A stretch of DNA of 64,000 nucleotides from Macrostomum lignano (Eukaryota). The first letter of the stretch is position 1. Each line of letters opens with the position of its first letter. The notes under the pieces were generated by a model that worked only from the letters and a program-made list of their open reading frames with translations, did no database searches and was not told the DNA's origin. Positions 42,547-61,345 of this stretch are shown piece by piece. A program made the translations under genes and the position numbers. Location of the stretch: the NCBI GenBank assembly GCA_002269645.1, contig NIVC01003294.1, positions 1 through 64,000 of the forward strand, read 5' to 3'.

Positions 42547-43762
42547 GGGTCCATGAGATTTGAGAAATGCCCGCAGACAAATTGCCCGCCAAGATTTGCC
42601 CGCCGAGCTTTTCCTGCCGTAATTTTCCCGCAATGCAATCTGCCTGCGAGTGAATTGCCCGCAGAGATTTGCCTGCCAAGATTTCCGCAATGCTTTTTCC
42701 TTTAGTGCTGCATTTACTCGTACATGTAATGTAGCCTTGCGAGTAGCAACAGATTTGCCTGCATTGCGTTTTGTCAACACCCAATGCTAAGTAATATCAT
42801 TTTTTTATAAAAATATTTAGCCAATCAAATTGCTCCTGTAATATACATGTAATTGTATTTCAAATTTCTCTATGCAGATTTTTCTTGTGGGAGAAGTTTT
42901 CATTTCTATAGCAGCATATCAGTGAGCCACATATATTCTATGTAGCTAATGTCCTCCTAGACTAGAGCATGCTCGATGCAATTTTTGGCGCCACAGTTGA
43001 GATTTTTTGTGGGAAATGAAAAATCTAAAAAACTAAAATTCCTTTTGCAACAACTTTTCTACAATTATGTCTTGTCAATGGAGGAAAGAATAGAATGGAG
43101 TGCTAATCTGAGCCAGTTATTTTTATCTCGCTCAATCTTAACTTTTAACATCCTTTTCCCCCATTCCTTCCTATTGGCTAAAAGCATATTTTGATGTGAG
43201 CTTATACTATGCTGGGACAGACCTTTTAGAGGGGAACAAAAGTGAAAACAAGACAAAAAATACTTTGTCTATGGCAGTCACGAGCCAATAGGAAAGAATG
43301 GAGGGGAAAGGGATGTTAAAAGTTAGCTACATAGCATTAGCTACATAGAATATATGTGGCTCACTGATGTGCCACTATAGAAATGAAAACTTCTCCCATA
43401 AGAAAAACTTGCATAGAGAAATTTGAAATACAATTACATGTATACTACAGGAGCAATTTGATTGGCTAAATATTTTTATAAAAAAATGACATTACTTAGC
43501 ATTGGGTGTTGACAAAACGCAATGCAGGCAAATCTGTCGCTACTTGCAAGGCTACATTACATGTACGAGTAAATGCAGCACTAAAGGAAAAAGCATTGCG
43601 GAAATCTCCATGGGCAATTCACTTGTGGGCAGATTGTATTGCAGTCAAATTTCAGCGGGCAAACCCCCTGCAGGCAAATCTCCTGCGAGCAAATCTCGGC
43701 AAGAAAAGCTCGGCGGGCAAATCTTGGCAGGCAATTTGTCTGCGGGCATTTCTCGTGCTCCC
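42547..43762. mobile_element. Non-autonomous Mutator(MULE)/foldback-like element
   Basis: 9-bp TSD TTTATAATT at 42538-42546 and 43763-43771; GGG...CCC termini. Inverted arms of ~400 bp (42547-~42950 vs ~43335-43762), plus an inner arm pair ~43140-43180 / ~43283-43323. Confidence 0.88.
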
Positions 43763-43867
43763 TTTATAATTATATATGATAAATAGATTTGTTTATTATA
43801 GTATATATTGTCTTCTAATATATATTATATGCAGAAAATATGTTTTGGTATTTTGTTTATTTGTTTA

Positions 43868-44623
43868 TGTGACAGGCCTTTTGGCTCTGTCTTTCTAAAC
43901 TTCTAACTATTAGTGTTTATTAAATATCCTACGAGCTGCCACCAAAGTTGTTACAGGCCTTTCACCTCTTACTTTATCAATTTTAATCCCACCGATTTGC
44001 CAACTACAGTTATCCTGATTATACTTGCTTTTACTCCCTAACTATTTCTTAGAATTTCATTTAAATATTTCTGGGTAGCGTTCTTAGTAGCGTTTCTGGT
44101 AGCGTTTCTGGTAGCTTATGGCTTGCTTTCTGGTAGCGTTCTAGTAGCTTATGGCCTGAGCGGTCTAGTACTGGTATATGTATTAGTGTATAGTCCTAAT
44201 CGGGCGTTCACCGAGACTAGAGGGTCACGGCGCCTCTCTTGGTATATCTCCAAGAATTAGTCCCAATTCCCTTCTCTTAGCAAATTTCTTAGAATCGTTT
44301 CACAGGTTTTGCAAATAAATAAGTCGCTATTTAGCTCAAAGACTTTGAAATGGTTTAGATTGAACTGCTTATTCTGTTCGCAATTATTTGCTCACGAGTA
44401 AAAGACAGTTAGAGTATATTTGTCGCAAAACCGCTCCTATATATAGTGATTTTTCCCACATACGATTAAAACAAAAAAATAATTCTCCAATTTATTTCGC
44501 GCATTAAAACAAACTATTATTTGGCGTTCGCGTAGATTCAGTTTCTAAGAAAGATTCGAATATACAGTTATTACATTGAAAGAACATTCGAGTATACTAT
44601 GATAAAGGCATAGCACTAGTACA
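43868..44623 (-). repeat. 3' LTR (756 bp)
   Basis: Direct repeat of 48155-48922, abutted by the PPT. Confidence 0.95.
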
Positions 44624-44909
44624 ACTTTCCTCCTCTATATATCAAATTTTGAACGAAATACTATATTATATGTATACAGTGAAAAATTGATATCGTAGGA
44701 AAATGCAGGTGAAAAGGTGCAAAGCAAGGTGCAGAAAACACAATTCAGTGCTAAAACAATTGGTGCATAAAATGGTTGTGATAGAACTATTATGTAGGTA
44801 AACCATTAAAGTGAGAACTATTATGGAAGCAAAACGAACTATTATAAAAGTATTATAAAAGGCAAAATTGTTATTAAAGGCAACGCAAAAGTTAGTTCAC
44901 CTCAATAGT

Positions 44910-45785
44910 TCAGATAAACATGCAGGGCTCCGGGAGGTCGCGATAGTAGGGCCAGCCGACTTGAGCGAAAAACCATCGGTACTCTTCGTCGAGGACCGTC
45001 AGCGCTGGCGGCGGGTTGGCTCTTATAGCTCGCTGGAGGCGATAGGCGACGTCCTGGAGAACAGCGACAGCTTCCTGGTAACTGAATTGATCCCTCAGAA
45101 ACTTCAGGTGTGTCCAAATTTGCGAGCATTGGGGGTAGCGCTGTCGGCTGTCGGATCGGTGGTATGCTACTTTCAGTGCGTATTGCTCAATGTGGAAGCG
45201 TAGCTTTTCCACCTCTGCTCCGCGAGTCTCCACAAGTTCTCGGACGATGCGATGAAAATCTCTCTGCGAATTCGATTGCTGCTGGCTCGGCTGTAGTGCT
45301 GATGGCTGGCTAGACTGCTGCGCTGATTGCAGGCTCGGCTGCAGCGCTGACTGCTGCGCTGATTGCAGGCTCGGCTGCGACGCTGGCTGCTGAGCTGGCG
45401 GTGTCGCAGCTGTCGATTTCTTCTGCCGTGGTGCCGGGGTCTTTCTCGATGATGGGGCAGCTGGCGGTGACACCAACTGCTGCGTTCGGCTTGATGTCGA
45501 CGATCCTGGCGTGGCCTTGACAACATAGGAGCGCACGGGCGCAGCTGCCTGTGCTGCCACCAGGGCGGCGCGCTTCTGCTCGGGGCCTTCGACCCTCATT
45601 TGGCGGCAAGGCGATGAAGCTGGCGATGATGTTCTTGGCCGTTTGCTGGATACACCAGGCGCCTTTGGACGTGTTGCACATCGAAGCGGTGCCTCATTTT
45701 CGTCGGTGTTGGGCGCTGGCTGGGGCTCCATATCGTCTGACAGATTGCCAATTAACTCGTCCAAGATATCAATAGAGTTGTTCAT
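44910..45785 (-). CDS. Extra ORF of the LTR element, 291 aa, unknown function (disordered N-half, predicted helical C-domain)
   Basis: ATG-to-stop intact, GC-rich and not repeat-derived; preceded by a GC box and TATA. Confidence 0.7.
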   Translation of the reverse strand: MNNSIDILDELIGNLSDDMEPQPAPNTDENEAPLRCATRPKAPGVSSKRPRTSSPASSPCRQMRVEGPEQKRAALVAAQAAAPVRSYVVKATPGSSTSSRTQQLVSPPAAPSSRKTPAPRQKKSTAATPPAQQPASQPSLQSAQQSALQPSLQSAQQSSQPSALQPSQQQSNSQRDFHRIVRELVETRGAEVEKLRFHIEQYALKVAYHRSDSRQRYPQCSQIWTHLKFLRDQFSYQEAVAVLQDVAYRLQRAIRANPPPALTVLDEEYRWFFAQVGWPYYRDLPEPCMFI

Positions 45786-45837
45786 TTTGATTTCTCTGCG
45801 AATGGCTCTTAGAATAGAAAGGAAGCTAGCAGTGAGC

Positions 45838-45936
45838 TATGGGATCTGTGGGGCCTGCGGGGTGCTCGTATTTATAGGCTGGCGGGCCGAAAAACTGGAC
45901 CTCTTCGAAGCACTCCCCTCGCGCGTGGGGCGGGGC
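45838..45936 (-). promoter_or_regulatory. Internal promoter of the extra ORF: GC box, TATAAATA, Inr-like TCACT
   Basis: GGGGCGGGGC at 45927-45936; TATAAATA (minus) at 45876-45869, about 30 nt before an Inr-like site and ~85 nt before ATG 45785. Confidence 0.6.
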
Positions 45937-46185
45937 ATGCCAGATTTGACAGATTTGACAACTAAATTTTTATGGATTTTCTATTTCTTTTTATAACTTT
46001 TTTATTTTTTGATAGATTTTCTTGAGTAAAGTATCAAATTAAAGATCGCATTTTGTAGATTAATATGGTATTTACAGATTCGCTCTATGTACAGCATGTC
46101 AAATTTTATAAGCAGATAAGTAATTCTAATACGGAATTTTAACTATTTAACACTGTTTCTTATGGGAAATTGCTTACGTCATGAT

Positions 46186-46659
46186 TTAAGGTGCTAAATA
46201 TTTCGCGTAGCGCCTTCGGGGCACAAATCCTGTCGCGCCTTCTCTTTCTCTCCTTCGCTGAGTCATCCTAAAGTTATACCTATTCTCTGGCTGAACTCGT
46301 TCCTCCTCTAACTCTAATGCTCCTTCTTCTTCTTCTGATGGCTCATCTGAGTCAGTCACTCTCTCTGTATTCTCACTGTTCAATTCTTCATTTCCTTCGT
46401 TTTCACTCTGCGAATTCGGATCTGCGAATACTCTCCATTGAATTCTGTTTTCTTCGTCTGAGCTTTCCTCCTCTAAAATTTGAACTTCTGGAATTCTAAC
46501 TTCTTTTTGTCTATGGCAAATTCTTTTCTTCGGCTTCGGCGGTTCCTTCTTCTTAGTTGACACTGGTGCTGGTTTTAAATTATTATTAATTTCCTCTGGT
46601 AAATCAATTTCGGATTTCGGTACTGGAGTCAGATTATTTCTATGTTTCTCTTCGAACAA
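46186..46659 (-). pseudogene. Probable remnant of the pol/integrase C-terminal tail
   Basis: Acidic low-complexity stretch ending PENRYNFRMTQRRR...RRRYAKYLAP, like Gypsy integrase tails (RYNLR); no catalytic domains. Confidence 0.4.
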
Positions 46660-47474
46660 CTTTGCAAATTCTCACAGCTTCTCCTCGAAATCTCATCTTC
46701 ATTCCATCTCATCTCAACTCAACAACTTCTCGACTCAATATCTCGACTCGACCCTGACCTCTCGAAAGCTTCTCTGCTGAACTCATGCCAGCTACAGCTC
46801 TACTGTCACGGGTCCTACAACTCTTAACAAATTCTCAAATCTCGAATCTCCTTCCGCTATCTCAGTTTGGCCTCGTCAGTAGAATCATAGAAATTCTGTA
46901 TTAATCTGCTCTTTAGGCCTTACTGCCCTTCCTTTCCTGCATGGCCTGACTCTCTGAACCTTTTTTGGCTCTTCTGAAAGCGTCATCGGCCTCTTCTTTC
47001 TGCCTTTGGCCAATCCGCAATTGGTCAGTATGCGTAGCTGTCCGCGCGTCATGCCAATCTCTGCAATCCAATCTTTTCGACAATTCTCTTCGCACAATTC
47101 TGCACAGTTCTCTCAGCATCAACTTCTCGTCAACTTCTCTGAGTAAAATAATCTTCCTTCAATGTTTTCAGTCCGAAATTGCAGTTCCCTGGCTTTCCTA
47201 AATAAGTTTCTTAGTAAAACGGCCCTTTTAAGGTCAAACGGCCCTTTTAAGGGTCACCTTCCTAAAATTTAATTATTTTATTTCTTTTAGACAGCTTATT
47301 TAATCAGTTGCCTTGCAATATGCCAACAAAATACCTCTTAATCAAATGTTTTTGGGTTTTTCTGAATTTTTTATTCGTTTTTATATTTATGCATATATAT
47401 TTGAAACATATTTACAGATTTGCTTTACAGACACTTTTAATTTGCTGATTCGCTTGAGTTCGCTCACTTTCTGA

Positions 47475-48053
47475 TTATGGCGGCTTCTGCTGGGCGTACC
47501 GATTGAAGTTGATTCGGCACTGGTGTCCTGCTTGAGGCCTAATGGGTCCTGGCTGGTTGCAGAAGAAGCAGTGACCAGGTGTCGGCTCTGGCCTGATTCC
47601 ACTGAATCTGTTCAGGCGGCGCGGTCTTGGCACTGACTGCTGCTGCTGCCCTGTCTTTGGTTCTAGGCTAATGTTTGTTAGCACGAAGGTCAAGGTCATT
47701 AGACACTCTACTAATGCATCAATTCCCTCTTTTCGGTTCTGCTGCTTCGGCTCAAATTCTTCGATTATTCGTCGCCTAATTTCCTGATACTGACTCTGCT
47801 CTTTTCTGTGACTGATTCGGCGTTTCAGTCCCTCTGGGATGTTTAGATTAGCAAAGAGAGCTTCCTTCTGTTTCTCGCCTGTAATCCCTTGGATTCTGCA
47901 CTGCTGCTCAAACGTGTTCATCCACTGCCTAATGTTCTGACCAGGTGTGAACTTTTCTACTTGCACTTCAGCCTCCTTCGATCCTAACTTGAGATGTTTC
48001 CTCAGTTCCTCTGCCAGCATGGCGATGGCATCATTAGCCTGATTCTGATTCAT
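47475..48053 (-). CDS. Gag-like protein with a degenerate CCHC zinc knuckle
   Basis: First ORF after the PBS; KFTPGQNIRQWMNTFE capsid-like motif; CFFCNQPGPIRPQA knuckle with the His and last Cys lost. Confidence 0.75.
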   Translation of the reverse strand: MNQNQANDAIAMLAEELRKHLKLGSKEAEVQVEKFTPGQNIRQWMNTFEQQCRIQGITGEKQKEALFANLNIPEGLKRRISHRKEQSQYQEIRRRIIEEFEPKQQNRKEGIDALVECLMTLTFVLTNISLEPKTGQQQQSVPRPRRLNRFSGIRPEPTPGHCFFCNQPGPIRPQAGHQCRINFNRYAQQKPP

Positions 48054-48141: not shown

Positions 48142-48152
48142 CGCTGCCACCA
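48142..48152 (-). other. Primer-binding site complementary to a tRNA 3' end (CGCTGCCACCA, tRNA-Leu-like)
   Basis: TGGTGGCAGCG lies 2 nt inside the 5' LTR end. Confidence 0.8.
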
Positions 48153-48154
48153 GC

Positions 48155-48922
48155 TGTGACAGGCCTTTTGGCTCTGTCTTTCTAAACTTCTAACTATTAG
48201 TGTTTATTAAATATCCTACGAGCTGCCACCAAAGTTGTTACAGGCCTTTCACCTCTTACTTTATCAATTTTAATCCCACCGATTTGCCAACTACAGTTAT
48301 CCTGATTATACTTGCTTTTACTCCCTAACTATTTCTTAGAATTTCATTTAAATATTTCTGGGTAGCGTTCTTAGTAGCGTTTCTGGTAGCGTTCTTAGTA
48401 GCGTTTCTGGTAGCTTATGGCTTGCTTTCTGGTAGCGTTCTAGTAGCTTATGGCCTGAGCGGTCTAGTACTGGTATATGTATTAGTGTATAGTCCTAATC
48501 GGGCGTTCACCGAGACTAGAGGGTCACGGCGCCTCTCTTGGTATATCTCCAAGAATTAGTCCCAATTCCCTTCTCTTAGCAAATTTCTTAGAATCGTTTC
48601 ACAGGTTTTGCAAATAAATAAGTCGCTATTTAGCTCAAAGACTTTGAAATGGTTTAGATTGAACTGCTTATTCTGTTCGCAATTATTTGCTCACGAGTAA
48701 AAGACAGTTAGAGTATATTTGTCGCAAAACCGCTCCTATATATAGTGATTTTTCCCACATACGATTAAAACAAAAAAATAATTCTCCAATTTATTTCGCG
48801 CATTAAAACAAACTATTATTTGGCGTTCGCGTAGATTCAGTTTCTAAGAAAGATTCGAATATACAGTTATTACATTGAAAGAACATTCGAGTATACTATG
48901 ATAAAGGCATAGCACTAGTACA
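48155..48922 (-). repeat. 5' LTR (768 bp)
   Basis: Direct repeat of 43868-44623, followed by the PBS. Confidence 0.95.
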
Positions 48923-49227
48923 TTTAGGCCTACCATGAAATTGTTCAAGCCTACAAGCTATATATCAAGTTATAGCACTTGAAACTCTAAATTAAAAGTT
49001 TATAGGCCTACTTTTAGGCCTAATATATAGCCAGTTTGCTTTTTGCTAGTTTGTCTCTGAAATAGCTAAATAAGTGTTTTGTCTACATATGTTATGGCTA
49101 TTATGGCTAAATAGTTAAACAACTGTTCCTAGTTGCACTTGCACTGATAATTTTATAGTTGGCTTATCTTAATAAAACTTATAAAAGCATAGGCCCTAGT
49201 GTTTTTGTCCATTGGATAGTGTTCCAA

Positions 49228-49540
49228 TGGATGGGTTATAGTCTAATAGTTAAAGTGTTGGACTCACAACTTGAAGATTATGGGTTCAATTCCTAATCCA
49301 ACTGAAAAAATTGTGTCCTTGAGCAAGACACTTAATTCTATATTGTTTCAGCTTACCTAGCTATAAAATAGTTGCTAGCATTAGCTGGGATAATTGAGGC
49401 TATGTGGTGCCCCTCCCCTCCCCCTAGTCCTTAGATTGAATAGCCATATGCAGCCTTTAGATATGCTATGCAATAGCTGTTGCTAAGCTGTCAGTTGCAA
49501 ATCTGCCCATTATGGCAATTTTGTTATCAATTATTATTAA
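49228..49540 (+). mobile_element. Heavily C->T/G->A-mutated SINE family A copy
   Basis: Colinear with the 19.6-kb and 55.8-kb copies (GTGTCCTTGAGCAAGACACTTAA intact); zero CpG remains. Confidence 0.85.
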
Positions 49541-49542
49541 CA

Positions 49543-50166
49543 CAAGGGTTGTCCCAGAAATAGCAAGAAAAACCAGTACAGAGGCTGATTATGATATTCA
49601 AAATTGATGCAACTTGTGTCATAAGTTTAAAAAAATCCAATGGTTGTTTTGCTTTTTAAATGGGGTAAAAAGGTCAATTGATTTAAAAGTTGTGCCTATA
49701 ATTTAAACAATGGAAAGGGGATATAGAGTTAAACCAAATCGAGCCTACTGCTAACCATAGACTAAACTTTTGATGTTTAGTCAGAACCATCGATTCAAAA
49801 ACAAAAGCAAACAAAGAAGCTGAAGAGAAACAAGAGAGCACATAAGCTCTCAAAAAAGCAGAAGCTAATCTGAAGCAGAAGCAGAACAGCTGCAGGCTGA
49901 GGGGTGACTTTGTTGAAAAGTCATCAGTTAAGGGCAATGGCGATGCTGCGTGACCAACTTTGCAGACCCCTCGACTTGGTGTAACTCTACCCCTACCCTT
50001 TGTTCTATTTATAGACACAACTTTTGAATGAATTGACATTTTACCCCATTTAAAAAGCAAAACAACCGTTGGATTTTTTTCTACTTATGACGCAAGTTGC
50101 ATCAAATTCAAATGTCATAGTCAGCCTCTGTACCAGTTTTTCCCACTATTTCTGGGACAACCCTCG
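49543..50166. mobile_element. Tc1/mariner-like MITE with ~160-bp inverted arms
   Basis: Arms 49543-~49705 and ~50005-50166. The right end reads TA|CGAGGGTTGTCCCAGAAA in reverse complement (mariner-type terminus); the left TA has decayed to CA. Confidence 0.8.
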
Positions 50167-50501
50167 TATTATTAGTATTGCATTTATTTGTTTACAAAAT
50201 CGATTAGCAATCATGTATATATTATTAATAGGCATCTCAAATATCTTTGTACCAATGATGTTAATTGATACTCTGATCAAACAAGTAAATATATTATCTG
50301 GACTATAAATTAGTCATTTTATTCATTTAGCATATTTTTTATGGCTTGTGTAACAATCAATTAATTAATCTGCTCCCATGTCCAATTTTGTCCTTGTACT
50401 TGTAATGTATGCTTGTATTTATCTAAATCTGTGCTAGTTCGTTCTAAAATGAATATGCGCTCCACTCACTACTAAACCTTCAGCTCCATCAGTAGCCAGT
50501 C

Positions 50502-52828
50502 ATGGGTGTACGCGGCCTGAAGAAGCACCTGAAGCGGGTGAACGCCCCCCGGCACTGGATGCTGGACAAAATGTCCGGCTGCTTCGCCCCCAAGCCGGCC
50601 GCTGGGCCGCACAAAATGCGCGAATGCCTGCCGCTGTGCCTGTTCCTGCGCAACCGGCTGAAGTACGCGCTCACTTACAAGGAGACCACCAAGATTCTGG
50701 CGCAGCGCTCTATTAAGGTGAGTCTCGTCTCTCGCTCGCTGTTTTCTTTTGGAAGAGGCAGAGATTGTAGTGATAAAAATAATATATCGAGATGGGATGA
50801 GAGGAGATAAATGAGGAGATGGGTGAGATTGGAGGGCGGAAGGCGTGAGATTGGATGATGGAAAGGGTGAGATTGGAAGGCGGAAGGGGTGAGATTGGAG
50901 GGCGGAACTGGTGAGGTTGCTGGGCGGAACTGGTGAGGTTGCTGGGCGGAACTGGTGAGGTTGCTGGGCGGAACTGGTGAGGTTGCTGGGCGGAACTGGT
51001 GAGGTTGCTGGGCGGAGCTGGTGAGATTAGAGGGTGGAAAGGATGAGATTGGAGGGCGGGAACTGGTGAGATTGGAGGGCGGGAACTGGTGAGATTGGAG
51101 CGTGGAAAGGGTGAGATTTGAGGGTGGAAAGGGTAAGCTTGGAGGGTGGAAGGGTGATATTAGAGGACAAAAGGGATTATTTTAGAGAGTGGAACGGGTG
51201 AGATTAGAGGGCGGAAGGAATGAGACCGGGTTGTTAATAGATCATATTGGAGGTAAAAAAGTGTAGGCCGAATAAAAGACAGAGATGACAAACATTAAAA
51301 AAAATTTGACACATGTCAAGTAAAGCCGCTTTGACACGTGTCAAGAGGTGCATGAATTTGACTTCGGTGTCAGATCAGGTTGGCTATAAAGATGTCCCCC
51401 GTCTTGGCGCCCTGCTCAGGTGGACGCCCGCGTCCGCACGGACAAGCGATTCCCGGCCGGCTTCATGGACGTCATCAGCATCGAGCGGACTGGCGAGAAC
51501 TACCGCCTGATCTACGATGTGAAGGGTCGCTTCGCCTTGCACGCGATCACCCCGGAGGAGGCCAAGTATAAGCTGTGCCGCGTGCGCAGGTGAGCGGGGT
51601 GGGAGAGTTCGTTTAGCTTTGTCACACAACCGGCGAGAGGCATTGCTGCCCATTCCGCCGACTCCCCCTGAGCAGGCACACACACAGGAGTGTACAGCGG
51701 CCCTAACTTTATTTATCGTTAGGCATGTACACTTCACTGTGCCCTGGGGTTGGCCTCAAGGCCGTTAATTGCACAAGCAGAGCCAAGCTGAGATTCCAGT
51801 TTAGCCCCAAATTAATGCAACTGCACTTGGAATCGAGCCCGGGCCGCTGGCATATCAGAGCGCCGCGCTGGACCACTGGGCTATGCCCCCCCCCGATGTG
51901 AATTACAAAATTACAAAAAAGTTTTCGTCCATAGGAAGTTTCTCAATTTGTGCTGCACCATCAACTTAACGAAGCTGAAGTTGGCACCAAATTGAGGGCA
52001 CAGAGAGTGTAGTACTCAAGCTACCAGTAGTAAACTCCAATCGCCAGAATCCCATTCCCTGAAATCCATCAGCTGAATCCTCTCCAACTTCTCTATAAAA
52101 CATCTCAAATTTAAGTATCATATCTTGCTTTCCCTGTGTGCAGAAATTGACTGCCTCAGACTGAGACTTTTTCTGACTCCTCTCTCCTCTCTGTTCTCAT
52201 CGCTCCTCTCCCATCTCTACTCTCTTATCTATCAATTCTCATCTCTCCTCTCCCTTTTATCGCTTGTCTCTCCTCCCTACGAAGGGACCTCTCCCCTATT
52301 CTCTCCTCCCTCCACTATCATCTCTCATCTCTACTCTCTTATCTCTCGTCTCTCCTCTACCTTGTAGTCACTAAAGCTACTGATATGTATCGATAATAAG
52401 TTCACAAAGCTGGCACACATCACCGCAGGGTGGCCACCGCCCATGGCAACGTGCCGCTGCTCAACACGCACGACGCCCGCACCATCCGGTACCCGGACCC
52501 GATGGTGAAGGTCAACGACACGATCAGGGTGGACCTGGCCACCGGCAAGATCATCGACTTCGTGAAGTTCGAGCCCGGCAACCTGTGCATGATCACCGGC
52601 GGCGCCAACACCGGCCGAGTTGGCGTCATCACCCACAAGGAGCGTCACCCGGACTTTGACATTGTGCACGTGAAGGACTCGCTTGGCCACACCTTCGCCA
52701 CTAGGGAGAGCAACGTCTTCGTCATTGGCAAGGGCAACCAGCCCTGGGTGTCGCTGCCGCGCGGCAAAGGCGTCAAGCTGAGCATCGCCGAGGAGCGCGA
52801 CCGCCGCCTGGCTGTCACCCGCAAGTGA
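50502..52828 (+). CDS. RPS4: 40S ribosomal protein S4 (eS4), 261 aa
   Basis: Exons 50502-50717, 51420-51589, 52429-52828 with GT-AG junctions in frame. Motifs [66 protein letters not shown]; AATAAA at 52948. Confidence 0.98.
50820..51220. repeat. Intronic G-rich minisatellite (~20-22-bp GGTGAGATTGGAGGGCGGAA / GGTGAGGTTGCTGGGCGGAACT)
   Basis: RPS4 intron 1. Confidence 0.85.
51620..51894 (-). mobile_element. SINE family B copy in RPS4 intron 2
   Basis: Reverse complement matches the 39860 and 58663 copies (TAGCCCAGTGG...GGCTCGATTCCAAGTGCAG...AAAGTTAGGGCCGCTGTACAC). Confidence 0.88.
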
Positions 52829-53064
52829 GCGAGCGGTCTCTGTCACCAATGGCTAACCTGCGGAGAAGTTTGCTTTGAAATCTGAGATTTTTGGAACTCG
52901 TTTCACGCTATTGTCTGGTTAATGCTTTTTGAGGGTAGGAGAACATTAATAAAATAACAAATTGGCTATCGGCCGTTTGGCTGGTTGGTTTGTTTCGAGT
53001 GAATCTTTGGCCTGGATTGAAACTGATTTTGTTTGACTGGCTTCTCTTTTCCTTTTTTACAAGA

Positions 53065-54870
53065 CACCAGATATCTTGGTACTACTCTGAGACACCAAAT
53101 ATCTTGGTACTACTCTGAGACACCCTGGAGATATCTTGATACTATTCTGAGACACCCTGGAGATATCTTGGTACTACTCTGAGACACCCTGGAGATATCT
53201 TGGTACTACTCTGAGACACCCTGGAGATATCTTGGTACTACATTAAGACACCTTCAGCACTCATGACACCTTGGTACTACTCTGAGACACCAGACACCTT
53301 GGTACTACTCTGAGACACCCTGGAGATATCTTGGTACTACTCTGAGACACCCTGGAGATATCTTGGTACTACTCTGAGACACCAGATACCTTGGTACTAC
53401 TCTGAGACACCAGACACCTTGGTACTACTCTGAGACACCAGATACCTTGGTACTACTCTGAGACACCAGACACCTTGGTACTACTCTGAGACACCAGATA
53501 CCTTGGTACTACTCTGAGACACCCTGGAGATATCTTGGTACTACTCTGAGACAGCAGACACCTTGGTACTACTCTGAGACACCCTGGAGATATCTTGGTA
53601 TTACTCTGAGACACCAGACACCTTGGTACTACTCTGAGACACCCTGGAGATATCTTGGTACTACTCTGAGACACCCTGGAGATATCTTGGTACTACTCTG
53701 AGACACCCTGAAGATATCTTGGTACTACATTAAGACACCTTCAGCACTCATGACACCTTGGTACTACTCTGAGACACCAGACACCTTGGTACTACTCTGA
53801 GACACCCTGGAGATATCTTGGTACTACTCTGAGACACCCTGGAGATATATTGGTACTACTCTGAGACACCAGATACCTTGGTACTACTCTGAGACACCAG
53901 ACACCTTGGTACTACTCTGAGACACCAGATACCTTGGTACTACTCTGAGACACCAGACACCTTGGTACTACTCTGAGACACCCTGGAGATATCTTAGTAT
54001 TACTCTGAGACACCAGACACCTTGGTACTACTCTGAGACACCCTGGAGATATCTTGGTACTACTCTGAGACACCAGACACCTTGGTACTACTCTGAGACA
54101 CCCTGGAGACATCTTGGTACTACTCTGAGACACCAGACATTTTGGTACTACTCTGAGACAGCAGACACCTTGGTACTACTCTGAGACACCAGACACCTTG
54201 GTACTACTCTGAGACACCAGACACCTTGGTACTACTCTGAGACACCAGACACGTTGGTAATACTCTGAGACAGCAGACACCTTGGTACTACTCTGAGACA
54301 CCAGACACCTTGGTACTACTCTGAGACACCAGACACGTTGGTAATACTCTGAGACACCAGACACCTTGGTACTACTCTGAAACACCCTGGAGATATCTTG
54401 GTACTACTCTGAGACACCAGATATCTTGGTACTACATTAAGACACCTTCAGCACTCATGACACCTTGGTACTACTCTGAGACACCAGACACCTTGGTACT
54501 ACTCTGAGACACCCTGGAGATATCTTGGTACTACTCTGAGACACCCTGGAGATATCTTGGTACTACTCTGAGACACCCTGGAGATATCTTGGTACTACTC
54601 TGAGACACCAGACACCTTGGTACTACTCTGAGACACCCTGGAGATATCTTGGTATTACTCTGAGACACCAGACACCTTGGTACTACTCTGAGACACCCTG
54701 GAGATATCTTGGTACTACTCTGAGACACCAGACACCTTGGTACTACTCTGAGACACCCTGGAGATATCTTGGTACTACTCTGAGACACCAGACACCTTGG
54801 TACTACTCTGAGACACCAGACACCTTGGTACTACTCTGAGACACCTCAGCATTCCTGACACCTTGGTGTT
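53065..54870. repeat. Minisatellite with mixed 28- and 32-bp units CTTGGTACTACTCTGAGACACC(AGACAC/CTGGAGATAT)
   Basis: About 1.8 kb, with a visible higher-order duplication of blocks. Confidence 0.96.
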
Positions 54871-55369
54871 ACTTCTGTACATGAAACAGACAAAAACCAA
54901 GTGCGAACAAATATTTGAGAAATTACTAGTATGCATTTCGTGCAGTCTTGCCGATTTAGTTTAGTTTTTGTATGTGTGCTACTACTTTCAGAAAGAAACT
55001 CCTACAAGTACTCGTATGAAGGACACTTTACATTACAAGTAAATTTTACGTTTAGGGATTCCACTCTTACATTATACCTCTAGCTCTATGCTTGAACACG
55101 CACGTATGTGTTATCGCTAAGAAGCCTTGCCAAAAATGAATAGCAATACACTAGCGTACTAAAATGTATCCCACGCAGCTAGCTCTTATCTAATGCATGT
55201 AACTATACACACCCCAGTTAAGTTCGTATGCGTATAAATTGTAAATTACAGGGCAGTGATTTAACAAGCTTCCTAAATAGCCACTTTTAGCCGGTGCCTC
55301 GAGAATTGCACGGAAACTATTCTTGAAAGCAAAGATTTTAAGCGAAGCCTTTTAAACAAATCAATAATC

Positions 55370-57275
55370 ATGGAGCCTCCGTTTCGTTGCTTCCGACTTC
55401 ACCGGCCCGACCTAGCGGCCGTGGCTGACTGCCTCGATCGAGCCTGTCGAGACGCTTTCGAAGACGCTAGCGTTGAGTTAATTGACAGCTGTCCGGATTT
55501 GTCCGAGCCTCCGTTTTGCCTGGCCGGCCGAGGCATCTGCGGCGGCGGAGGAGAGAACAGCGGCCCTGTGCTTCTATAGCTGGCGGGGTGCCGTATCTGC
55601 TGCCGACGCCTCAGGTGGAGCAAAGGTTTGGCACTCAACCATGTGGGTTCGATTCCGCCTTAATTAGCTTGTTATTGGATTATTCATGCCCATTGCATGG
55701 GGTCACATACCCAATTCAAAGACTGACTGTGAGTCCTGTGACGGCGTAACTGTACGCGTGCAACATGGGGTTGCAGCCTAGCGGTAGCTAGAGCGTCGGA
55801 CTCACGACTTTAAGGCCGGGGTTCGAATCTCGACCCACTCAAAACAATTTGTGTCCTTGAGCAAGATACTTAAAACTCTGCATTCACCCAGCTGTAAAAT
55901 TGGTACCAGCATTAGCTGGGTTAATTGACGGTATGTGGCGACCCCCCAGTCCTTGGACTGAACAGCCGTACGCAGCCTTCAGATGCGCCGTGCAATGGCT
56001 GCGGCTGAGCTGTCGGTGGCACATCTGCCCATTAGGTCATTCTTGAGTGTGCTTAAGGATCAACAAGGATATGCATTCTGTACATGAAACCGTTTGTTAC
56101 TTTACTGACTGAGTCTACTGTCTGCATTTACTACTTGTACTTTAAAGTATGGTAACGTTTGGTATGGTATAATGACGTAACTTTATAAGTATGGTGTACG
56201 TACAGGTAATTGACGTCTGACTTGACTTGAAAGGATATTGTCGGATCTAAGTCGTCCGGAAAATTCTACTTTCTAGATTTTGCCTATGACCATTCACCAC
56301 TTGTACTTTTATCCTCCCACCTTTGTTTTGCCCTGATTTGGACACCAATTCCTTTGAGAAAGAGAAATTTCCTTTGAGAAGGACACCATTTCCTTTGAGA
56401 AGGACACCACTTCCTTTGAGAAGGACACCAATTCCTTTGAGAATGACACCATTTCCTTTGAGAAGGACACCAATTCCTTTGAGAATGACACCATTTCCTT
56501 TGAGAAGGACACCGTTTCCTTTAAGAAGGACATCATTTCCTTTGAGAAGGACACCATTTCCTTTAAGAAGGACACCAATTCCTTTGAGAATGACACCATT
56601 TCCTTTGAGAATGACACCGTTTCCTTTAAGAAGGACATCATTTCCTTTGAGAAGGACACCATTTCCTTTAAGAAGGACACCGTTTCCTTTGAGAAGGACA
56701 CCGTTTTTTTTTAGAAGGACACCATTTCCTTTGAGAAGGACACCGTTTCCTTTGAGAAGGACACCGTTTCCTTTGAAGACAGGATTTCTTTGAGAATGAT
56801 ATTTTCTTTTGACCTTGATAGTTAGCACAGTGAAAATATATACAGTGAAAATCAATTAGTTAACTCTAAATTTTCAGACGCTACGACCTGCGCAACTTGC
56901 TGAAAGCGACCGGCCATCTTGACGGTCTCATCATCGGCGCTGGCGCTGCTTCGTCGACCAGATTTGGGCGCAACGCTGAGCTCGTGGCCAACCTGGGCCC
57001 GCTAGGCAACGGATGTCGGGTGGCCAGCCTCCGAGCTGATGGTGAAGACGATGGCACTGAAAATCTGGCTAATTGTCGGTTGAGCAGGCCAGATTTTGCC
57101 GAGGCCGGTCTTATGGTGGACTCTTTGTGCTCCAGCGGCCAGACTGACGGCCCAGTCCTTCGGCTGCGAGCTTCTCGATGGCGTCCGGAGGCTGCGACAC
57201 CAGATGAGTCGGCGGCCAAGACAAGAGGCCGCCTGGCGGAGCTGCTGCAACGAGCGCTCGCCAAAGAGTTCTCGG
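55370..57275 (+). CDS. C11orf54: C11orf54/PTD012-like ester hydrolase (DUF1907), first two exons, copy A
   Basis: Exon 1 55370-55625 (CPDLSEPPFCLAGRGICG...GGVPYLLP, frameshift ~55540-55575); exon 2 56878-57275 (RYDL...IIGAGA...LANCRLS). Junction CAA AG|gtttgg...ttttcag|A CGC is in phase. The 3' exons were not found. Confidence 0.82.
55767..56033 (+). mobile_element. SINE family A copy in C11orf54 intron 1
   Basis: A-box CAGCCTAGCGG, B-box GGTTCGAATC, and the conserved central domain. Confidence 0.88.
56340..56790 (+). repeat. Minisatellite, 21-bp unit ATTTCCTTTGAGAAGGACACC
   Basis: Upstream of C11orf54 exon 2. Confidence 0.95.
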
Positions 57276-57314
57276 GTGAGTAGAGAATATAAGTGTTTAC
57301 CTTGGTCTCCTTCT

Positions 57315-57750
57315 CAAGTGAAATGGTGTCCTTCTCAAAGGAAACGGTGTCCTTCTCAAAAGAATTGGTGTCCTTCTCAAAGGAAATGGTGTCCTCAAAA
57401 GAATTGGTGTCCTTCTCAAAGGAAATGGTGTCCTCAAAAGAATTGGTGTCCTTCTCAAAGGAAATGGTGTCCTTAAAAGAATTGGTTTCCTTCTCAAAGG
57501 AAATGGTGTCCTCAAAAGAATTGGTGTCCTTCTCAATTAAATGGTGTCCTCAAAAGAATTGGTGTCCTTCTCAAAGGAAATAGTGTCCTCAAAGGAAATG
57601 GTGTCCTTCTCAAAGGAAATTGTGTCCTTCTCAAAGGAATTTGTGTCCTTCTCAAAGGAATTTGTGTCCTTTTCAAAGGAATTTGTGTCCTTCTTAGAGA
57701 AAATGGTGTCCTCAAAGTAAATGGTGTCCTTCTCAAGATAGTTGGTGTTC
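57315..57750 (-). repeat. Same 21-bp minisatellite in inverted orientation (GGTGTCCTTCTCAAAGGAAAT)
   Basis: Downstream of C11orf54 exon 2; its unit is the reverse complement of the 56340-56790 unit. Confidence 0.95.
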
Positions 57751-58029
57751 TTCTGAAAGTAAAGTAAGTTAACTTTTGAGTAAAGTATTTTTAAGCTGTT
57801 GTACGACGTTACGTAGTTACTATTTTATCACATGATGAGAAAATTCAAGGTTGTATATTTGTTTATTTGCATTTTTCATACCGTCTTGTGGCGTCTGAGT
57901 TTATGGTAAAAATAATAAAATTACAACTTTTTGACTACATATTGCTTCTATACCAATCATACGTTTCAGTCCAATTGACTGGTTTCCAATTAAAGGAAAC
58001 CAGTCAATGTCGATTTTTCCCAACTTTGA

Positions 58030-58660
58030 CACTCTCCGATAGCCATGCAGACCGCTATACGAGCGTATAATGCCTTGTCCTCTATCAAGCTATCAACCAA
58101 GTCATTCTCGGACTGTTTCAAAAGCTTGCAAAACCTGGCAATCCTCAATATGATCAACGTAATCAAGGTACAGTGCAGTGACATATTTGGCAACGAGCTG
58201 GTGGATCAACTCGCCAAATTAGTGCGCACCACTCAAGCTGTCTGCCAAGAAAATCACCTGTAAGCCGCGCGATTCACAATTGCCTGAGCCATCGAAACCA
58301 TCTTCTCTGGAATTGCTGCTCCGAGTATATCGGAAAATGCGAGCCAGCTTTGCGATGCCTGCTATGAATCGCAAAGTATCCGAATACCGGATCTCCTTAA
58401 AAAAACTGACCTTAGAGACATACCTTACTACGAAGTGGTTCCTTCCCTAACCTCTTTTGTGTGGAACTTCAACGAAGCGCGGAGACATCACCTCGGCTAA
58501 TCTCTATAAGGTTGGACGAGCTGACCAACCCGGACCGGATCCGTGCCTTATGGCACATTCGTCCGGAACTCCGGGCGGATGAAGATTGCTCACGTCACTC
58601 TCGAGAGCTCTTCAGCTGCTGGCAAAGGGTTTTCGATCAGCCACCAAAGCCCCAAGCCTA
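58030..58660 (+). mobile_element. Decayed non-LTR retrotransposon RNase H / C-terminal remnant
   Basis: LSDS[fs]QTAIRAYNALSS...SK...C...L..L...GNELVDQLAK matches the LINE RNase H pattern SDSQAAxxAL...GNExADxLAK. Confidence 0.6.
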
Positions 58661-58662
58661 AA

Positions 58663-58895
58663 GAGGGCCGTAACCCAGTGGTCCAGCGCGGCGCTTTTAT
58701 GTGCCAGCGACCCAGGCTCGATTCCAAGTGCAGTCACATTAATTTGGAGCTAAATTGGAATCTCAGCTTGGGTCTGTTTGGGCAATTAACGCCATTGAGG
58801 GCCAACCCCCAAGGCGCAGTACATGTACATGCCTAAGTGTACAACTGTACATGCCTACCGATAAATAAAGTTAGGGCCGCTGTACACGCCTGTGT
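58663..58895 (+). mobile_element. SINE family B copy (3'-truncated)
   Basis: Matches the 39860 and 51894 copies. Confidence 0.85.
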
Positions 58896-60569
58896 GAATG
58901 TTGTTGCGTCGAGACAAGAGAGCCCTTAAAAGGGCCGTTTTACTACATAACTAATCGGGATTTTTCTTACTACTCTACTGTAAGTAGGCGTCAACGTAAA
59001 TTTTACGCAAACAATTAATACTTTTTTGTGATGCCAAATTTATCGATCGTGCAATAATTCATGTTTGGATGCAAAATATAAGCGCGGGGCCGGTTGTCGC
59101 CCTAGTGGAGCGTACTTTTTGGCCGAATTCTTACTTGCCTAATTATTCGCGGCTTTTCCGTAAAATCGATAAATTGTGGTATCGATTGTGGGATCGAGAC
59201 ACCACAAGTATGCCTGTGCGCATGACGGCGTACGTATCCGCGCGCTTGTGTTCTCACGCTTCAAAAAGAAGCATAGCTACTTAAAGAAGCACATCTCAAA
59301 TATTACAACTAATCTCTGACAATTCGTGAAGATAAAAATAAATACTTAATAAACATTCAGAAAGCTGAGCTGTCATTTTGACAGAAACTGCATTAAATTC
59401 TAAAATCGATGTGATAAAATGTTCATGTAATAAAAGCAGAACTGTCCAATCTCAACCTCTATATTTGATGCAAATTGGCGCAGCTAGTCCGCTTTAAGTT
59501 TTCCCAAAACGGCATTCGCTTCCGTCGATCCTGGTTACTACGCCCTCGAGCATGAGACACCGCGAGGAAGAGCTTGCAAGCAAACTCGTAGGTAGCGTGG
59601 GTCCACTGATATCATGTACGAGCACTAGCAACATGCACACTGTTCGCTTCCCTTTGTCTTTGCCCCGTCTATAGCTGGTTCCCCCTAATTAAGCTTTCGT
59701 GTATGTAGCAATTGTCATCACGTGACCTTAATCATCTATCTGCCACTTTGCTCATTCCATCATTAATAAATTGTTGGTAATATTAAATTGATCTGACGAT
59801 TTTGCCAAATTACACGGCCTGATAGGTATACAATCGTATTATGAGTTGCCGATGTGGCTCAAAGTTGGACGAGGCCTCTCTCTCGCTAATTACTATTGAA
59901 TTATTTACACTCAGCAACAGCTGTTAAAGTTTCCACCCAAGTGATCTCAGGGTAATGCGATTTGCGTCACAAGGCCCTGTGTGCTTAGGCTGTACTGGTG
60001 AGGAGAGCTATTGATAGAATGGAGAGTTATGGCCTAATTGAGTTGGAATAAAGCTACCACGCGCAGTTCCAGTCCCAATAATGAACATCTGCCTTCGGAT
60101 GGCAACTTTAACACGTTGCTGAGTGTATCCGCATATTGTTAATCCGAAGGGCTTAACTTTGAGCGTCGAAATGATAATTAGATCCTAAATGTACGAGTAC
60201 GAGCGTAATCTTTGCTACGTAAGATCGCAGTATTAGCAGTATCCGAAAGAGTCCATGCAGTAGTTGCCTGGTGACTGATTGAAAGCAAAAAACGAAGAAC
60301 AAAATTTCTGGCTCATTGTGAAGAAGCTGGTTTATTTTTACGTGTAAAATAAGAATCAAACAACTAAAAGACTAAAAAAGATTTATACTTTAACTATAGT
60401 GTAAGAATAGGTTAAAAGAAATCTTTTAAAGCGTTATACCGGAGACAATTCTGGTTAAAATTATATTGTTACGAGCTCGTTATTAAAATAAAACCAACTG
60501 TGAATATGATAAACGATAGCATAATGTATACCAGCGTATGTACATTTTAATAAGTAGCATCTTGACAAA

Positions 60570-61106
60570 NNNNNNNNNNNNNNNNNNNNNNNNNNNNNNN
60601 NNNNNNNNNNNNNNNNNNNNNNNNNNNNNNNNNNNNNNNNNNNNNNNNNNNNNNNNNNNNNNNNNNNNNNNNNNNNNNNNNNNNNNNNNNNNNNNNNNNN
60701 NNNNNNNNNNNNNNNNNNNNNNNNNNNNNNNNNNNNNNNNNNNNNNNNNNNNNNNNNNNNNNNNNNNNNNNNNNNNNNNNNNNNNNNNNNNNNNNNNNNN
60801 NNNNNNNNNNNNNNNNNNNNNNNNNNNNNNNNNNNNNNNNNNNNNNNNNNNNNNNNNNNNNNNNNNNNNNNNNNNNNNNNNNNNNNNNNNNNNNNNNNNN
60901 NNNNNNNNNNNNNNNNNNNNNNNNNNNNNNNNNNNNNNNNNNNNNNNNNNNNNNNNNNNNNNNNNNNNNNNNNNNNNNNNNNNNNNNNNNNNNNNNNNNN
61001 NNNNNNNNNNNNNNNNNNNNNNNNNNNNNNNNNNNNNNNNNNNNNNNNNNNNNNNNNNNNNNNNNNNNNNNNNNNNNNNNNNNNNNNNNNNNNNNNNNNN
61101 NNNNNN
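60570..61106. other. Assembly gap (537 N)
   Basis: Run of N. Confidence 0.99.
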
Positions 61107-61345
61107 CAAAAATGAATAGCAATACACTAGCGTACTAAAATGTATCCCACGCAGCTAGCTCTTATCTAATGCATGTAACTATACACACCCCAGTTAAGTT
61201 CGTATGCGTATAAATTGTAAATTACAGGGCAGTGATTTAACAAGCTTCCTAAATAGCCACTTTTAGCCGGTGCCTCGAGAATTGCACGGAAACTATTCTT
61301 GAAAGCAAAGATTTTAAGCGAAGCCTTTTAAACAAATCAATAATC

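Follow-up and report, generated by a model that had tools for sequence, protein, structure and literature searches.

A non-autonomous LTR retrotransposon of Macrostomum lignano carries a conserved open reading frame that may encode a nuclear accessory protein

Why should an LTR element with no recognizable polymerase core hold an intact additional gene, and what might its product do? This question is raised by a 5,055-bp element on the minus strand (48922-43868) of the 64,000-nt stretch of Macrostomum lignano DNA analysed here (contig NIVC01003294.1, positions 1 to 64,000; hereafter the window). A sequence-only reading of this DNA had proposed that an open reading frame in the env position (the extra ORF) is an independently expressed nuclear accessory factor that could be why the element persists. 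The ends and signals of the element are as follows.

48923..48926, minus strand: upstream copy of the TSD, TAAA, 4 bp
48155..48922, minus strand: 5′ LTR, 768 nt, TG...CA ends
48801, minus strand: E2F-like GCGCGAAA, upstream of the LTR TATA box, a motif with 31 occurrences in the window
48737..48744, minus strand: LTR TATA box TATATATA
48355..48454, minus strand: tandem array of about eight 12-nt units with seven GCTAC cores (TRF and k-mer counts)
48222..48249, minus strand: inner duplicated LTR end (…GGCCTGTAACA), then a second PBS-like TGGTGGCAGC
48142..48152, minus strand: PBS TGGTGGCAGCG, tRNA-Leu type
44637..44909, minus strand: T-rich 3′ UTR lacking both AATAAA/ATTAAA and a poly(A) relic
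44625..44636, minus strand: PPT, 12 purines
43868..44623, minus strand: 3′ LTR, 756 nt
43864..43867, minus strand: downstream copy of the TSD, TAAA

The LTRs are identical in 756 of 756 aligned columns (0 substitutions), and their single difference is one 12-nt indel inside the tandem array. Together with the TAAA TSD, the PBS at 48152 and the PPT at 44636-44625, this bears out the earlier claim of a recent insertion with its signals intact. Being downstream of the LTR TATA box, the tandem array falls in the transcribed part of the LTR, and the duplicated LTR end with its PBS-like copy is present in both LTRs (43962-43935 in the 3′ LTR). Since the extra ORF is followed by no poly(A) signal before the LTR, its mRNA would end in the 3′ LTR. 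The GCGCGAAA motif is presumably of E2F type. Unlike the heat-inducible M. lignano LTR families, the window has no match to the published canonical HSE pattern on either strand. The element occurs once in the window (n=1), and a matching tRNA gene was not found there. The 11 nt of the PBS are also present in a primer for the internal region of ta-TRIM, whose PBS is of the Leu-tRNA type (PMC4558846); a Leu PBS is compatible with the Mag clade (PMC3286476), which with 78 of 137 families is the largest in M. lignano (PMC12801592), without proving Mag membership.

The region that separates the 5′ LTR from the extra ORF holds three parts.

47475..48053, minus strand: short gag-like ORF of 192 aa whose zinc knuckle is non-canonical
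46672..47474, minus strand: spacer at the pol position, with 15-21 stops in each frame and no recognisable domain
46186..46671, minus strand: 161-codon acidic open frame with no leading ATG and an Arg-rich tail at its end

The gag-like frame has 199 open codons, a length equalled in 2/2000 shuffles, and its knuckle (C-X2-C-X11-H-X-C) departs from canonical spacing, in line with the damaged Gag knuckle reported before. We tentatively take it to be gag from its position and its motifs; no homologue was matched in Pfam, in PDB sequences or in a word-based search (0/506 among longer proteins). No PR, RT, IN-zinc or CCHC motif was found in the three sense frames, and the six frames of 46189-47480, with stops as X, returned a single Pfam row at E 7.6. 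The 161-codon frame was as open in 0/2000 shuffles and has no Pfam match; it is probably the C-terminal end of pol/integrase, a likeness to the integrase C-terminal tail that its motifs suggest. The reported loss of Pol thus stands for the PR/RT/RH/IN core, which is not detectable, while pol is perhaps not wholly gone (46671-46186). With direct LTRs, TG...CA ends, TSD, PBS and PPT, and no PR/RT/RH/IN found, the element is a non-autonomous LTR retrotransposon.

The extra ORF lies between the pol-tail-like frame and the PPT and has no intron.

44910..45785, minus strand: extra ORF, 291 aa, uninterrupted, sense
45741..45773, minus strand: acidic amphipathic helix at the N-terminus (residues 5-15), matched by residues 59-70 of relative P0001
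45564..45695, minus strand: short motifs in the disordered half, EAPLR..TRP (31-40), KRPR (48-51) and KRAA (71-74)
44913..45287, minus strand: five-helix C-domain and aromatic tail, residues 167-291, the conserved core of the family

A stop-free frame of at least 291 codons arose in 3/2000 dinucleotide shuffles of 44900-45950, so the intact ORF seen earlier in the env position (45785-44910) is a rare outcome. Its highest 19-residue hydropathy is 1.02, which agrees with the earlier statement that the protein has neither a TM helix nor a signal-peptide core. Residues 1-30 are acidic (net -8), residues 31-130 are basic (+15), and residues 131-172 consist of 88% S/P/Q/A/T. The AlphaFold2 model (five-row alignment) has disorder to about residue 165 and then five helices (167-275), with the pLDDT of 10-residue blocks mostly 80-95 across 171-290. 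Composition and model agree on a basic/Ser-Pro-Gln disordered half followed by a helical C-domain, as first described; the end of the protein had been misplaced at WFFAQVGWPYY and is in fact …YYRDLPEPCMFI, 10 residues further on. The base composition of the extra ORF (A 0.25, GC3 0.60) is like that of host exons, against A 0.34 in gag and 0.41 in the tail, and the GC-rich block runs from the upstream GC box to the stop codon. A codon-usage score failed to tell the true frame from shifted frames and was discarded.

A homology search of 1.84 billion representatives (E<=0.001) returned five matches, four of which are real relatives (E 2e-18 to 5e-5); P0004 (924 aa, repeat-rich, matching over a 39-residue stretch) was dropped as noise. 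The relatives have 29-44% C-domain identity to the extra ORF (best relative 42%), and pairwise identity within the family is 29-60%. Two named relatives (BOX15_Mlig016073 and Mlig026206) are both M. lignano proteins from an RNA-seq-based annotation, which indicates that the family is transcribed (PMC5730564). The helical C-domain is common to all, and its net charge of 0 to +8 is only mildly basic, so DNA binding is not evident. Two long relatives share EAPLR..TRP, KRP and K[RK]AA with the disordered half of the extra ORF, and this region is identical to P0001 at 45/87 positions (E 2e-12). The basic KRP(R) motif, noted before as NLS-like, is conserved in 3/3 members long enough to hold it; the acidic amphipathic helix is present in 2/3 long members and missing from P0002. 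A neutral frame would stay stop-free with P = 1.8e-4 at 0.3 substitutions per site and P = 1.4e-5 at 0.5, where the expected identity is 39%. In addition, replacements are milder than neutral ones (mean BLOSUM62 -0.13 to -0.43, s.e. ~0.2, versus about -0.8). Taken together, these sequence comparisons support the extra ORF as a conserved protein-coding gene under purifying selection.

The family has no known counterpart in the collections searched. An exact look-up found 0/3 window proteins in the protein collection. Pfam searches with the ORF, the C-domain, the gag-like ORF, the tail and two spacer frames gave best rows at E 0.11-1.4, below the cut-offs; a Histone row (residues 122-193), also below the cut-off, falls in low-complexity sequence and was rejected. 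The family alignment had no match in Pfam or PHROGs, PDB sequence searches gave nothing significant (best E 0.61), a word-based search with the C-domain yielded 0/43 candidates, and the ESM Atlas gave no usable match. The Foldseek check that had been suggested for the C-domain returned 0 PDB matches at E<=0.001, as did BFVD with the single-sequence model only. The best VIA-align Z scores (7.5, 8.2 and 7.9 across runs) are in the range of generic helical bundles, among them Gle1 CTD (Z 8.2, rmsd 3.4, 121 aligned) and AppA SCHIC (Z 8.0, rmsd 2.4, 82 aligned), and no fold was assigned or excluded. Resemblances to a death-effector domain, an integrase core and a WRPY-type motif were dropped because the motifs are not kept in the relatives. 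The two Mlig identifiers are absent from the supplements of PMC5730564 that were examined and from the full texts searched. Short terms had no match in the supplements of PMC12801592, a weak result as alignment rows there stop at 400 characters, consensus sequences are broken across lines, and 6 of 137 families are given, under another gene-id scheme. No earlier description of the family was found in the literature searched, largely without subscription papers. The family is apparently limited to one flatworm genus, and it defines a protein family without a Pfam entry. The single copy here is the one member known to lie in an element, and an element origin of the whole family is hypothetical.

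Two routes could express the extra ORF, and both have sequence motifs upstream of it.

45869..45960, minus strand: candidate internal promoter, with TGTCAAATC twice (45960-45941), a GC box (45935-45928) and TATAAATA (45876-45869)
45796..45836, minus strand: splice-acceptor-like stretch, with a putative branch point CTCAC, a pyrimidine tract and AG at 45808 and 45796
48255..48259, minus strand: splice-donor-like GTAAG (AAA/GTAAG) in the LTR

There is no ATG between the GC box/TATAAATA and the start codon. When the 175 nt upstream were shuffled 100,000 times, TATAWAWR turned up in 0.9% of cases; with the 401-nt AT-rich spacer the share rose to 20.9%, and the element has six such boxes; the TATA box is suggestive of an internal promoter. 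The Inr-like site of the earlier reading proved uninformative: the sole hexamer at canonical distance places +1 near 45849, 27 nt from the TATA box, and the other, near 45833, is 43 nt away. No significant motif is common to the internal promoter and U3 (102/500 and 491/500 shuffles reach such a score), and the unit of the LTR array does not recur at this promoter. An own promoter had been proposed from a GC box (45935) and TATAAATA (45876), both of which are present, but the splice-site-like motifs fit equally, and an mRNA spliced from the LTR donor to the acceptor before the ATG would explain expression equally well. In M. lignano, 38.8% of genes are trans-spliced (PMC5730564). The 661-nt leader contains 1 ATG against 6.9 expected (7/2000 shuffles).

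One further signal runs antisense to the element.

47235..47279, plus strand: histone-3′-UTR-like stem-loop, core 47240-47255

It matches RF00032 with 27.8 bits (E 0.00097 over the whole window), below the gathering threshold of 34; all 46 model positions are aligned, with a 6-bp stem (6/6 pairs formed, one of them G-U), a 4-nt U-rich loop and conserved flanks. A comparable score was reached in 1/100 shuffles, and a partial tandem copy directly precedes the stem-loop. The three plus-strand frames of 46190-47241 have no Pfam match, and no antisense histone or other antisense ORF was found. The literature searched, largely without subscription papers, held no precedent for a histone stem-loop in an LTR element.

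Starting from intact cis signals, the missing Pol core and a protein conserved by purifying selection, we tentatively prefer the possibility that the element is a non-autonomous Ty3/Gypsy type, trans-mobilised by an autonomous relative, and that its extra ORF encodes an element-borne nuclear activator or anti-silencer. Such a protein may help the element switch itself on. A subgenomic mRNA, started some 27-30 nt downstream of the TATA box (near 45849), would run into the 3′ LTR and end there, and the KRPR/KRAA motifs would import the protein into the nucleus. In the least secure steps, the helical C-domain would dock, by itself or via a host factor, on element chromatin, perhaps where the LTR tandem array lies; the acidic N-terminal helix and short motifs would recruit co-activators; and the outcome would be higher LTR transcription or an offset of silencing. 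The stop-filled spacer next to an intact extra ORF argues for an element-borne gene, whereas its host-exon-like composition and the passage of the named relatives through a filter against annotated repeats (PMC5730564) argue against it. That annotation left out transcripts overlapping annotated repeats; its repeat library dropped unclassified elements and used an LTRharvest minimum TSD of 5 bp, so an element type with a 4-bp TSD could have been missed (PMC5730564). The claim that the extra ORF is the reason the element persists is weak: the gag and pol-tail-like frames are also open (2/2000 and 0/2000 shuffles), flatworms have thriving non-autonomous LTR elements that hold no ORF (ta-TRIM, PMC4558846), and a trans-acting protein would benefit copies without it too.

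The main rival, itself somewhat unlikely, is a fast-evolving Macrostomum-specific host gene captured fairly recently with its promoter region, with selection acting on the host genes and the element as carrier. It would account for the host-like composition from GC box to stop codon and for the retention of the named relatives in a repeat-filtered gene set (PMC5730564); the element is young, so the intactness of this copy needs no selection on the element, and the antisense histone-type 3′ end suggests that the element has taken up host sequence. Against it, the protein collection has no close donor (best relative 42%), although the donor species may be missing there, and the locus shows no intron and no poly(A) relic. 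Several intron-blind paralogues of 29-60% identity, limited to one genus, would also be typical of element-borne genes, and capture of a processed mRNA would not bring along the upstream TATA box.

A decoy or adaptor with an outside target, which would block a host defence protein (piRNA or chromatin) or alter the stem or germ cell cycle, is less probable still. Conserved short motifs in a disordered arm beside a small helical bundle would suit an interaction adaptor, and accessory TE proteins of Arabidopsis had more predicted host contacts than core enzymes (PMC13547354), but no result points to a partner and no recognised docking motif could be assigned. Similarly doubtful is a CERV/Rev-type factor acting at the RNA level, whose own mRNA would be spliced or trans-spliced and which would bind unspliced genomic RNA, for example at the LTR array, and export or stabilise it. 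The donor-like site at 48259 and the acceptor-like stretch at 45836-45796 are consistent with this, as are the ATG-poor leader (though the gag mRNA needs that too), the presence of the array in RNA, a leucine-rich N-terminal helix that could be an export signal, and the precedent of CERV, a nuclear, lineage-restricted protein of an animal Gypsy element (PMC10309623). Yet the aligned family members conserve neither an Arg-rich RNA-binding motif nor a Cys finger, and this reading would leave unexplained a clean TATA box that is normally spaced from the ATG. An Env or fusogen remnant is very improbable: its one argument is position, between the pol-tail-like frame and the PPT, whereas 5/5 members have no signal peptide or TM segment (highest hydropathy 0.22-1.02), as the earlier reading had held for the extra ORF, 4/5 have no N-glycosylation sequon, and errantiviruses of Platyhelminthes carry a gB-type Env in the order GAG-ENV-POL (PMC13524379). 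A chance ORF in GC-rich, repeat-expanded DNA, suggested by 52-65% GC, in-frame 12/36-nt repeats and a C-domain region not unusual in being open (146/2000 shuffles), is refuted beyond reasonable doubt by four homologues that keep the same frame and whose replacements are conservative.

Extra ORFs are common in LTR retrotransposons and few have a known function, CERV being a tested animal case (PMC10309623). M. lignano offers transgenesis and a working LTR reporter assay (PMC12801592), which makes accessory-ORF function in an animal LTR element directly testable. If the preferred nuclear activator or anti-silencer were sequence-specific, Tas or VANC would have a counterpart in animals, and autonomous and non-autonomous elements might be dividing labour between them. 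Extending this speculatively, and improbably on balance, Macrostomum LTR elements might have an independent foamy-virus-like circuit in which an internally promoted sense gene supplies a nuclear activator or anti-silencer that reads the element's own LTR array; Pol-less derivatives would have kept it, perhaps supplying it to the autonomous elements that supply enzymes, and the histone-type stem-loop would perhaps end a non-polyadenylated antisense RNA from the internal promoter region before gag. RT-seeded surveys (PMC12801592) cannot find Pol-less elements of this type, and LTRharvest with a 5-bp minimum TSD (PMC5730564) would miss one with a 4-bp TSD.

Known systems resemble this element in different parts. 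TR-GAG and ta-TRIM elements likewise have intact LTRs, PBS and PPT and lack Pol (PMC4350172, PMC4558846), and in E. multilocularis the PBS of ta-TRIM has the same Leu-type start and its TSD is mostly 4 bp long (PMC4558846); however, TR-GAGs are <4 kb with gag only (PMC4350172) and TRIMs are described as without an ORF (PMC4558846), against 5,055 bp and three open frames here. Among animals, bdelloid rotifer LTR elements have captured various ORFs at the env position, and their ORF3 products are recognisable GDSL esterases, DEDDy exonucleases or TM proteins (PMC5408684), unlike the extra ORF. CERV of C. elegans Cer1, an accessory protein, likewise belongs to an animal Gypsy element, is restricted to one lineage and has a candidate basic NLS, but it has 517 aa, exons in common with gag, a Cys loop and a G-protein-like domain (PMC10309623), in contrast to a separate 291-aa ORF with a predicted all-helical domain. 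By analogy, the activator or anti-silencer role may tentatively be likened to foamy-virus Tas, to Grande gene23 and, loosely, to VANC, without family membership in Tas or VANC. VANC proteins are TE-encoded diverging paralogues associated with tandem repeats in non-coding DNA (PMC5735166, PMC13547354), their targets forming such repeats (PMC5735166), but they belong to plant VANDAL DNA transposons and are MAIN-related (PMC5735166, PMC13547354), a domain with no Pfam match in the extra ORF or its relatives. Plant LTR retrotransposons have additional ORFs between pol and the 3′ LTR; one of them, Grande gene23 of maize, is not an env gene, is of unknown origin, and has a nuclear product and its own promoter; it is antisense and in a plant element (PMC7264820), whereas the extra ORF is sense, in a Pol-less animal element, with no sequence link found. 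Tas/Bel1 is retroviral, with its promoter in the 3′ end of env and a C-terminal activation domain (PMC13220597), whereas the extra ORF has its acidic helix at the N-terminus, no env beside it and an activation role that is hypothetical, and 5/5 members have no Tas/Bel1 Pfam match at E<=1. Even so, the extra ORF shares with Tas its place as a sense accessory ORF just before the 3′ LTR and, as candidates here, an acidic-class activation domain and an internal promoter (PMC13220597).

Judged from its sequence, the extra ORF encodes a real protein. Residues 171-291 served as the query for a phmmer scan of all 1.84 billion representatives, which returned five hits, comprising four clear relatives and one repeat protein that was discarded. 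The relatives are 29-44% identical to the query in the C-domain (the predicted helical C-terminal part) and 37-60% identical to each other, and conservation continues in the disordered half as short motifs. Under an analytic neutral model, the chance of a stop-free frame is 1.8e-4 to 1.4e-5 at 0.3-0.5 substitutions per site. In addition, replacements are milder than neutral (mean BLOSUM62 of -0.13 to -0.43 observed vs about -0.8 predicted), a contrast somewhat flattered because the aligner prefers similar pairs and the relatives were picked by similarity. The four relatives and the improbability of the stop-free frame thus uphold the proposal that the uninterrupted 291-aa sense ORF is a genuine protein. 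Two relatives among the 8000 candidates scored, P0001 (BOX15_Mlig016073g1) and P0005 (Mlig026206g2), come from M. lignano; since its GenBank annotation was built from RNA-seq, according to excerpts of PMC5730564, at least these two are transcribed.

With five sequences as input, AlphaFold2 predicted a short helix at the N terminus, a chain that is disordered up to about residue 165, and then a confident five-helix domain, in agreement with the helical C-domain of the sequence-only reading. Both the query and P0001 have an acidic, amphipathic N-terminal helix, which is missing from P0002. The KRP(R) motif, a putative nuclear localization signal as in that reading, occurs in each of the three long members. 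A hydrophobic segment was found in 0/5 members, which fits the claimed lack of a signal peptide or TM helix and excludes Env identity. Searches of family libraries and solved-structure sequences gave no name for the C-domain.

The features in and around the element are as follows.

48922-43868, minus strand: the LTR retrotransposon
48745-48732, minus strand: LTR TATA box
48714-48054, minus strand: leader, 661 nt
48249-48155 and 43962-43868, minus strand: LTR ends with a second PBS
47235-47279, plus strand: histone-3'-UTR-like stem-loop (47217-47279 with a partial tandem copy)
46671-46186, minus strand: acidic tail frame
46183-46174, minus strand: TGACGTAA, presumably CRE-like
45877-45864, minus strand: internal TATA box
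45785-44910, minus strand: extra ORF
42663-43623 and 49532-50177: MITE-like inverted-repeat pairs on the element's two flanks (289 nt, 94%; 139 nt, 87%)
49232-49335: weak tRNA-like match (25 bits) adjoining TGTCTTGCTCAAGGACAC, together probably a tRNA-derived SINE
56243-57772 and 62219-63748: near-identical duplication with a DUF1907 exon, flanking an N gap (about 60570-61110), possibly an assembly artefact

The young anatomy ascribed to the element was confirmed: the LTRs (768 and 756 nt) show 0 substitutions over 756 aligned columns and differ solely by a 12-nt indel in a tandem array, the termini are TG...CA, the TSD is 4 bp, and both PBS and PPT were found. In its first 11 bases the PBS matches a primer for the internal part of ta-TRIM, a cestode element whose PBS is given as Leu-tRNA in excerpts of PMC4558846; Leu or Ser PBSs are reported for Culex Mag-clade elements (PMC3286476, in part). 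The last 81 nt of each LTR form an extension with an older LTR end and PBS-like sequence, which places a second PBS, followed by AATAAA, inside each LTR. As both LTRs carry this extension, we infer at least one round of replication of the element after the LTR-end/PBS duplication. A canonical HSE is absent from the element, which is therefore unlike the heat-induced families in the excerpted text of PMC12801592.

Three frames in the interior are open beyond chance: the gag-like ORF (199 open codons; as long in 2/2000 shuffles), the tail frame (161 codons without a leading ATG; 0/2000) and the extra ORF (291 codons reached in 3/2000). Between the first two lies an 800-nt spacer with 15-21 stops in each frame. 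A search of the element for PR, RT or IN catalytic motifs found none, consistent with the proposed loss of PR/RT/RH/IN. The zinc knuckle of the gag-like ORF has non-canonical spacing, as expected of the damaged Gag knuckle described earlier; we assigned the gag and integrase-tail labels from position and motif resemblance, and sequence searches confirmed neither. The tail frame may correspond to an integrase tail; alternatively, it may be an exon that splicing joins to other sequence. The leader contains 1 ATG vs 6.9 expected (7/2000 shuffles). The stem-loop, antisense to the element (27.8 bits, gathering 34; E 0.00097), is one of three Rfam matches with E<=0.05 across the 64 kb, and a pattern drawn up post hoc gave one match (1/100 shuffles). 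No histone coding relic was found upstream of it, and a competing fold is possible with the tandem copy. The stem-loop may derive from capture of a histone 3' end or mark the terminus of an antisense RNA.

The window is eukaryotic and minisatellite-rich, with exons that match RPS4, PHAF1, dystroglycan, an LRR protein and DUF1907 (6/9 frames gave a match). The host is probably a Macrostomum flatworm, as the named relatives of the extra ORF suggest; an exact look-up of three window proteins gave no match. An AT-rich stretch contains the element, which is located about 1.6 kb upstream of where RPS4 translation starts and is oriented away from that gene. Host genes in 1-39500 and 50600-64000 are broken up by numerous long arrays of minisatellites, with units of about 15-35 nt, and by shorter microsatellite runs; the arrays create long repetitive pseudo-ORFs.

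The ATG of the extra ORF is preceded by a GC box 150 nt upstream and a perfect TATA box 91 nt upstream, and the interval from the TATA box to the start codon contains no other ATG. The TATA, Inr, E2F and splice-site labels follow consensus sequences. Of the promoter elements claimed by the sequence-only reading, the GC box and the TATA box are there, but shuffling the nearest 175 nt yields a TATA box in 0.9% of cases and shuffling the wider spacer in 20.9%, and the same stretch can be read as a splice acceptor, with a donor-like GTAAG at 48259 in the LTR. We consider expression from an internal promoter somewhat probable and expression by cis- or trans-splicing a little short of an even chance; the two are not mutually exclusive. 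The TGACGTAA site lies directly past the tail-frame stop and precedes the internal TATA box by about 300 nt. This TATA box and that of the LTR have 12/14 bases in common, including the downstream GAGC, a likeness not significant vs shuffles. No poly(A) signal was found in the extra-ORF 3' UTR ahead of the LTR, so its mRNA would terminate within the LTR. Trans-splicing is reported for 38.8% of M. lignano genes (PMC5730564, in part).

The family is quite probably element-borne. Recent capture of a host gene by the element is unlikely, although P0001 and P0005 point to host genes, since transcripts overlapping annotated repeats were left out of their gene set (PMC5730564, in part), and the base composition of the extra ORF is host-like, unlike that of gag. 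The repeat library, as described in the same excerpts, dropped unclassified elements and used an LTRharvest TSD minimum of 5 bp; the filter could therefore have let through Pol-less elements whose TSDs are 4 bp. In addition, a close donor, introns and a poly(A) relic are all absent, and a putative core promoter lies upstream of the extra ORF, which argues against recent capture.

A nuclear regulator boosting expression of the element itself would best fit the extra ORF, because of its position, probable promoter, basic motifs, acidic helix and small helical domain, and we tentatively propose a nuclear activator or anti-silencer. The LTR tandem array would be a candidate target; tests for a response element common to the LTR and internal promoter were negative, and the C-domain is not strongly basic. 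An adaptor acting against host proteins is quite unlikely. The tandem array is within transcribed sequence, which would also suit an RNA-level role, with CERV of C. elegans Cer1 as precedent (PMC10309623, in part). RNA export as such appears improbable. The suggestion that the ORF is why the element persists is unneeded, since flatworms retain elements that have no ORF at all and two further frames of this element are open as well.

Both plants and animals are known to have LTR elements of the class with extra ORFs ahead of the 3' LTR. A literature search, with most subscription papers outside its scope, found no earlier description of this family; what is new is a protein family in a familiar slot, carried by an unusual Pol-less element. 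A nuclear regulator would have precedents, as described in excerpts, in Tas of foamy virus (PMC13220597), gene23 of maize Grande (PMC7264820) and VANC of VANDAL (PMC5735166).
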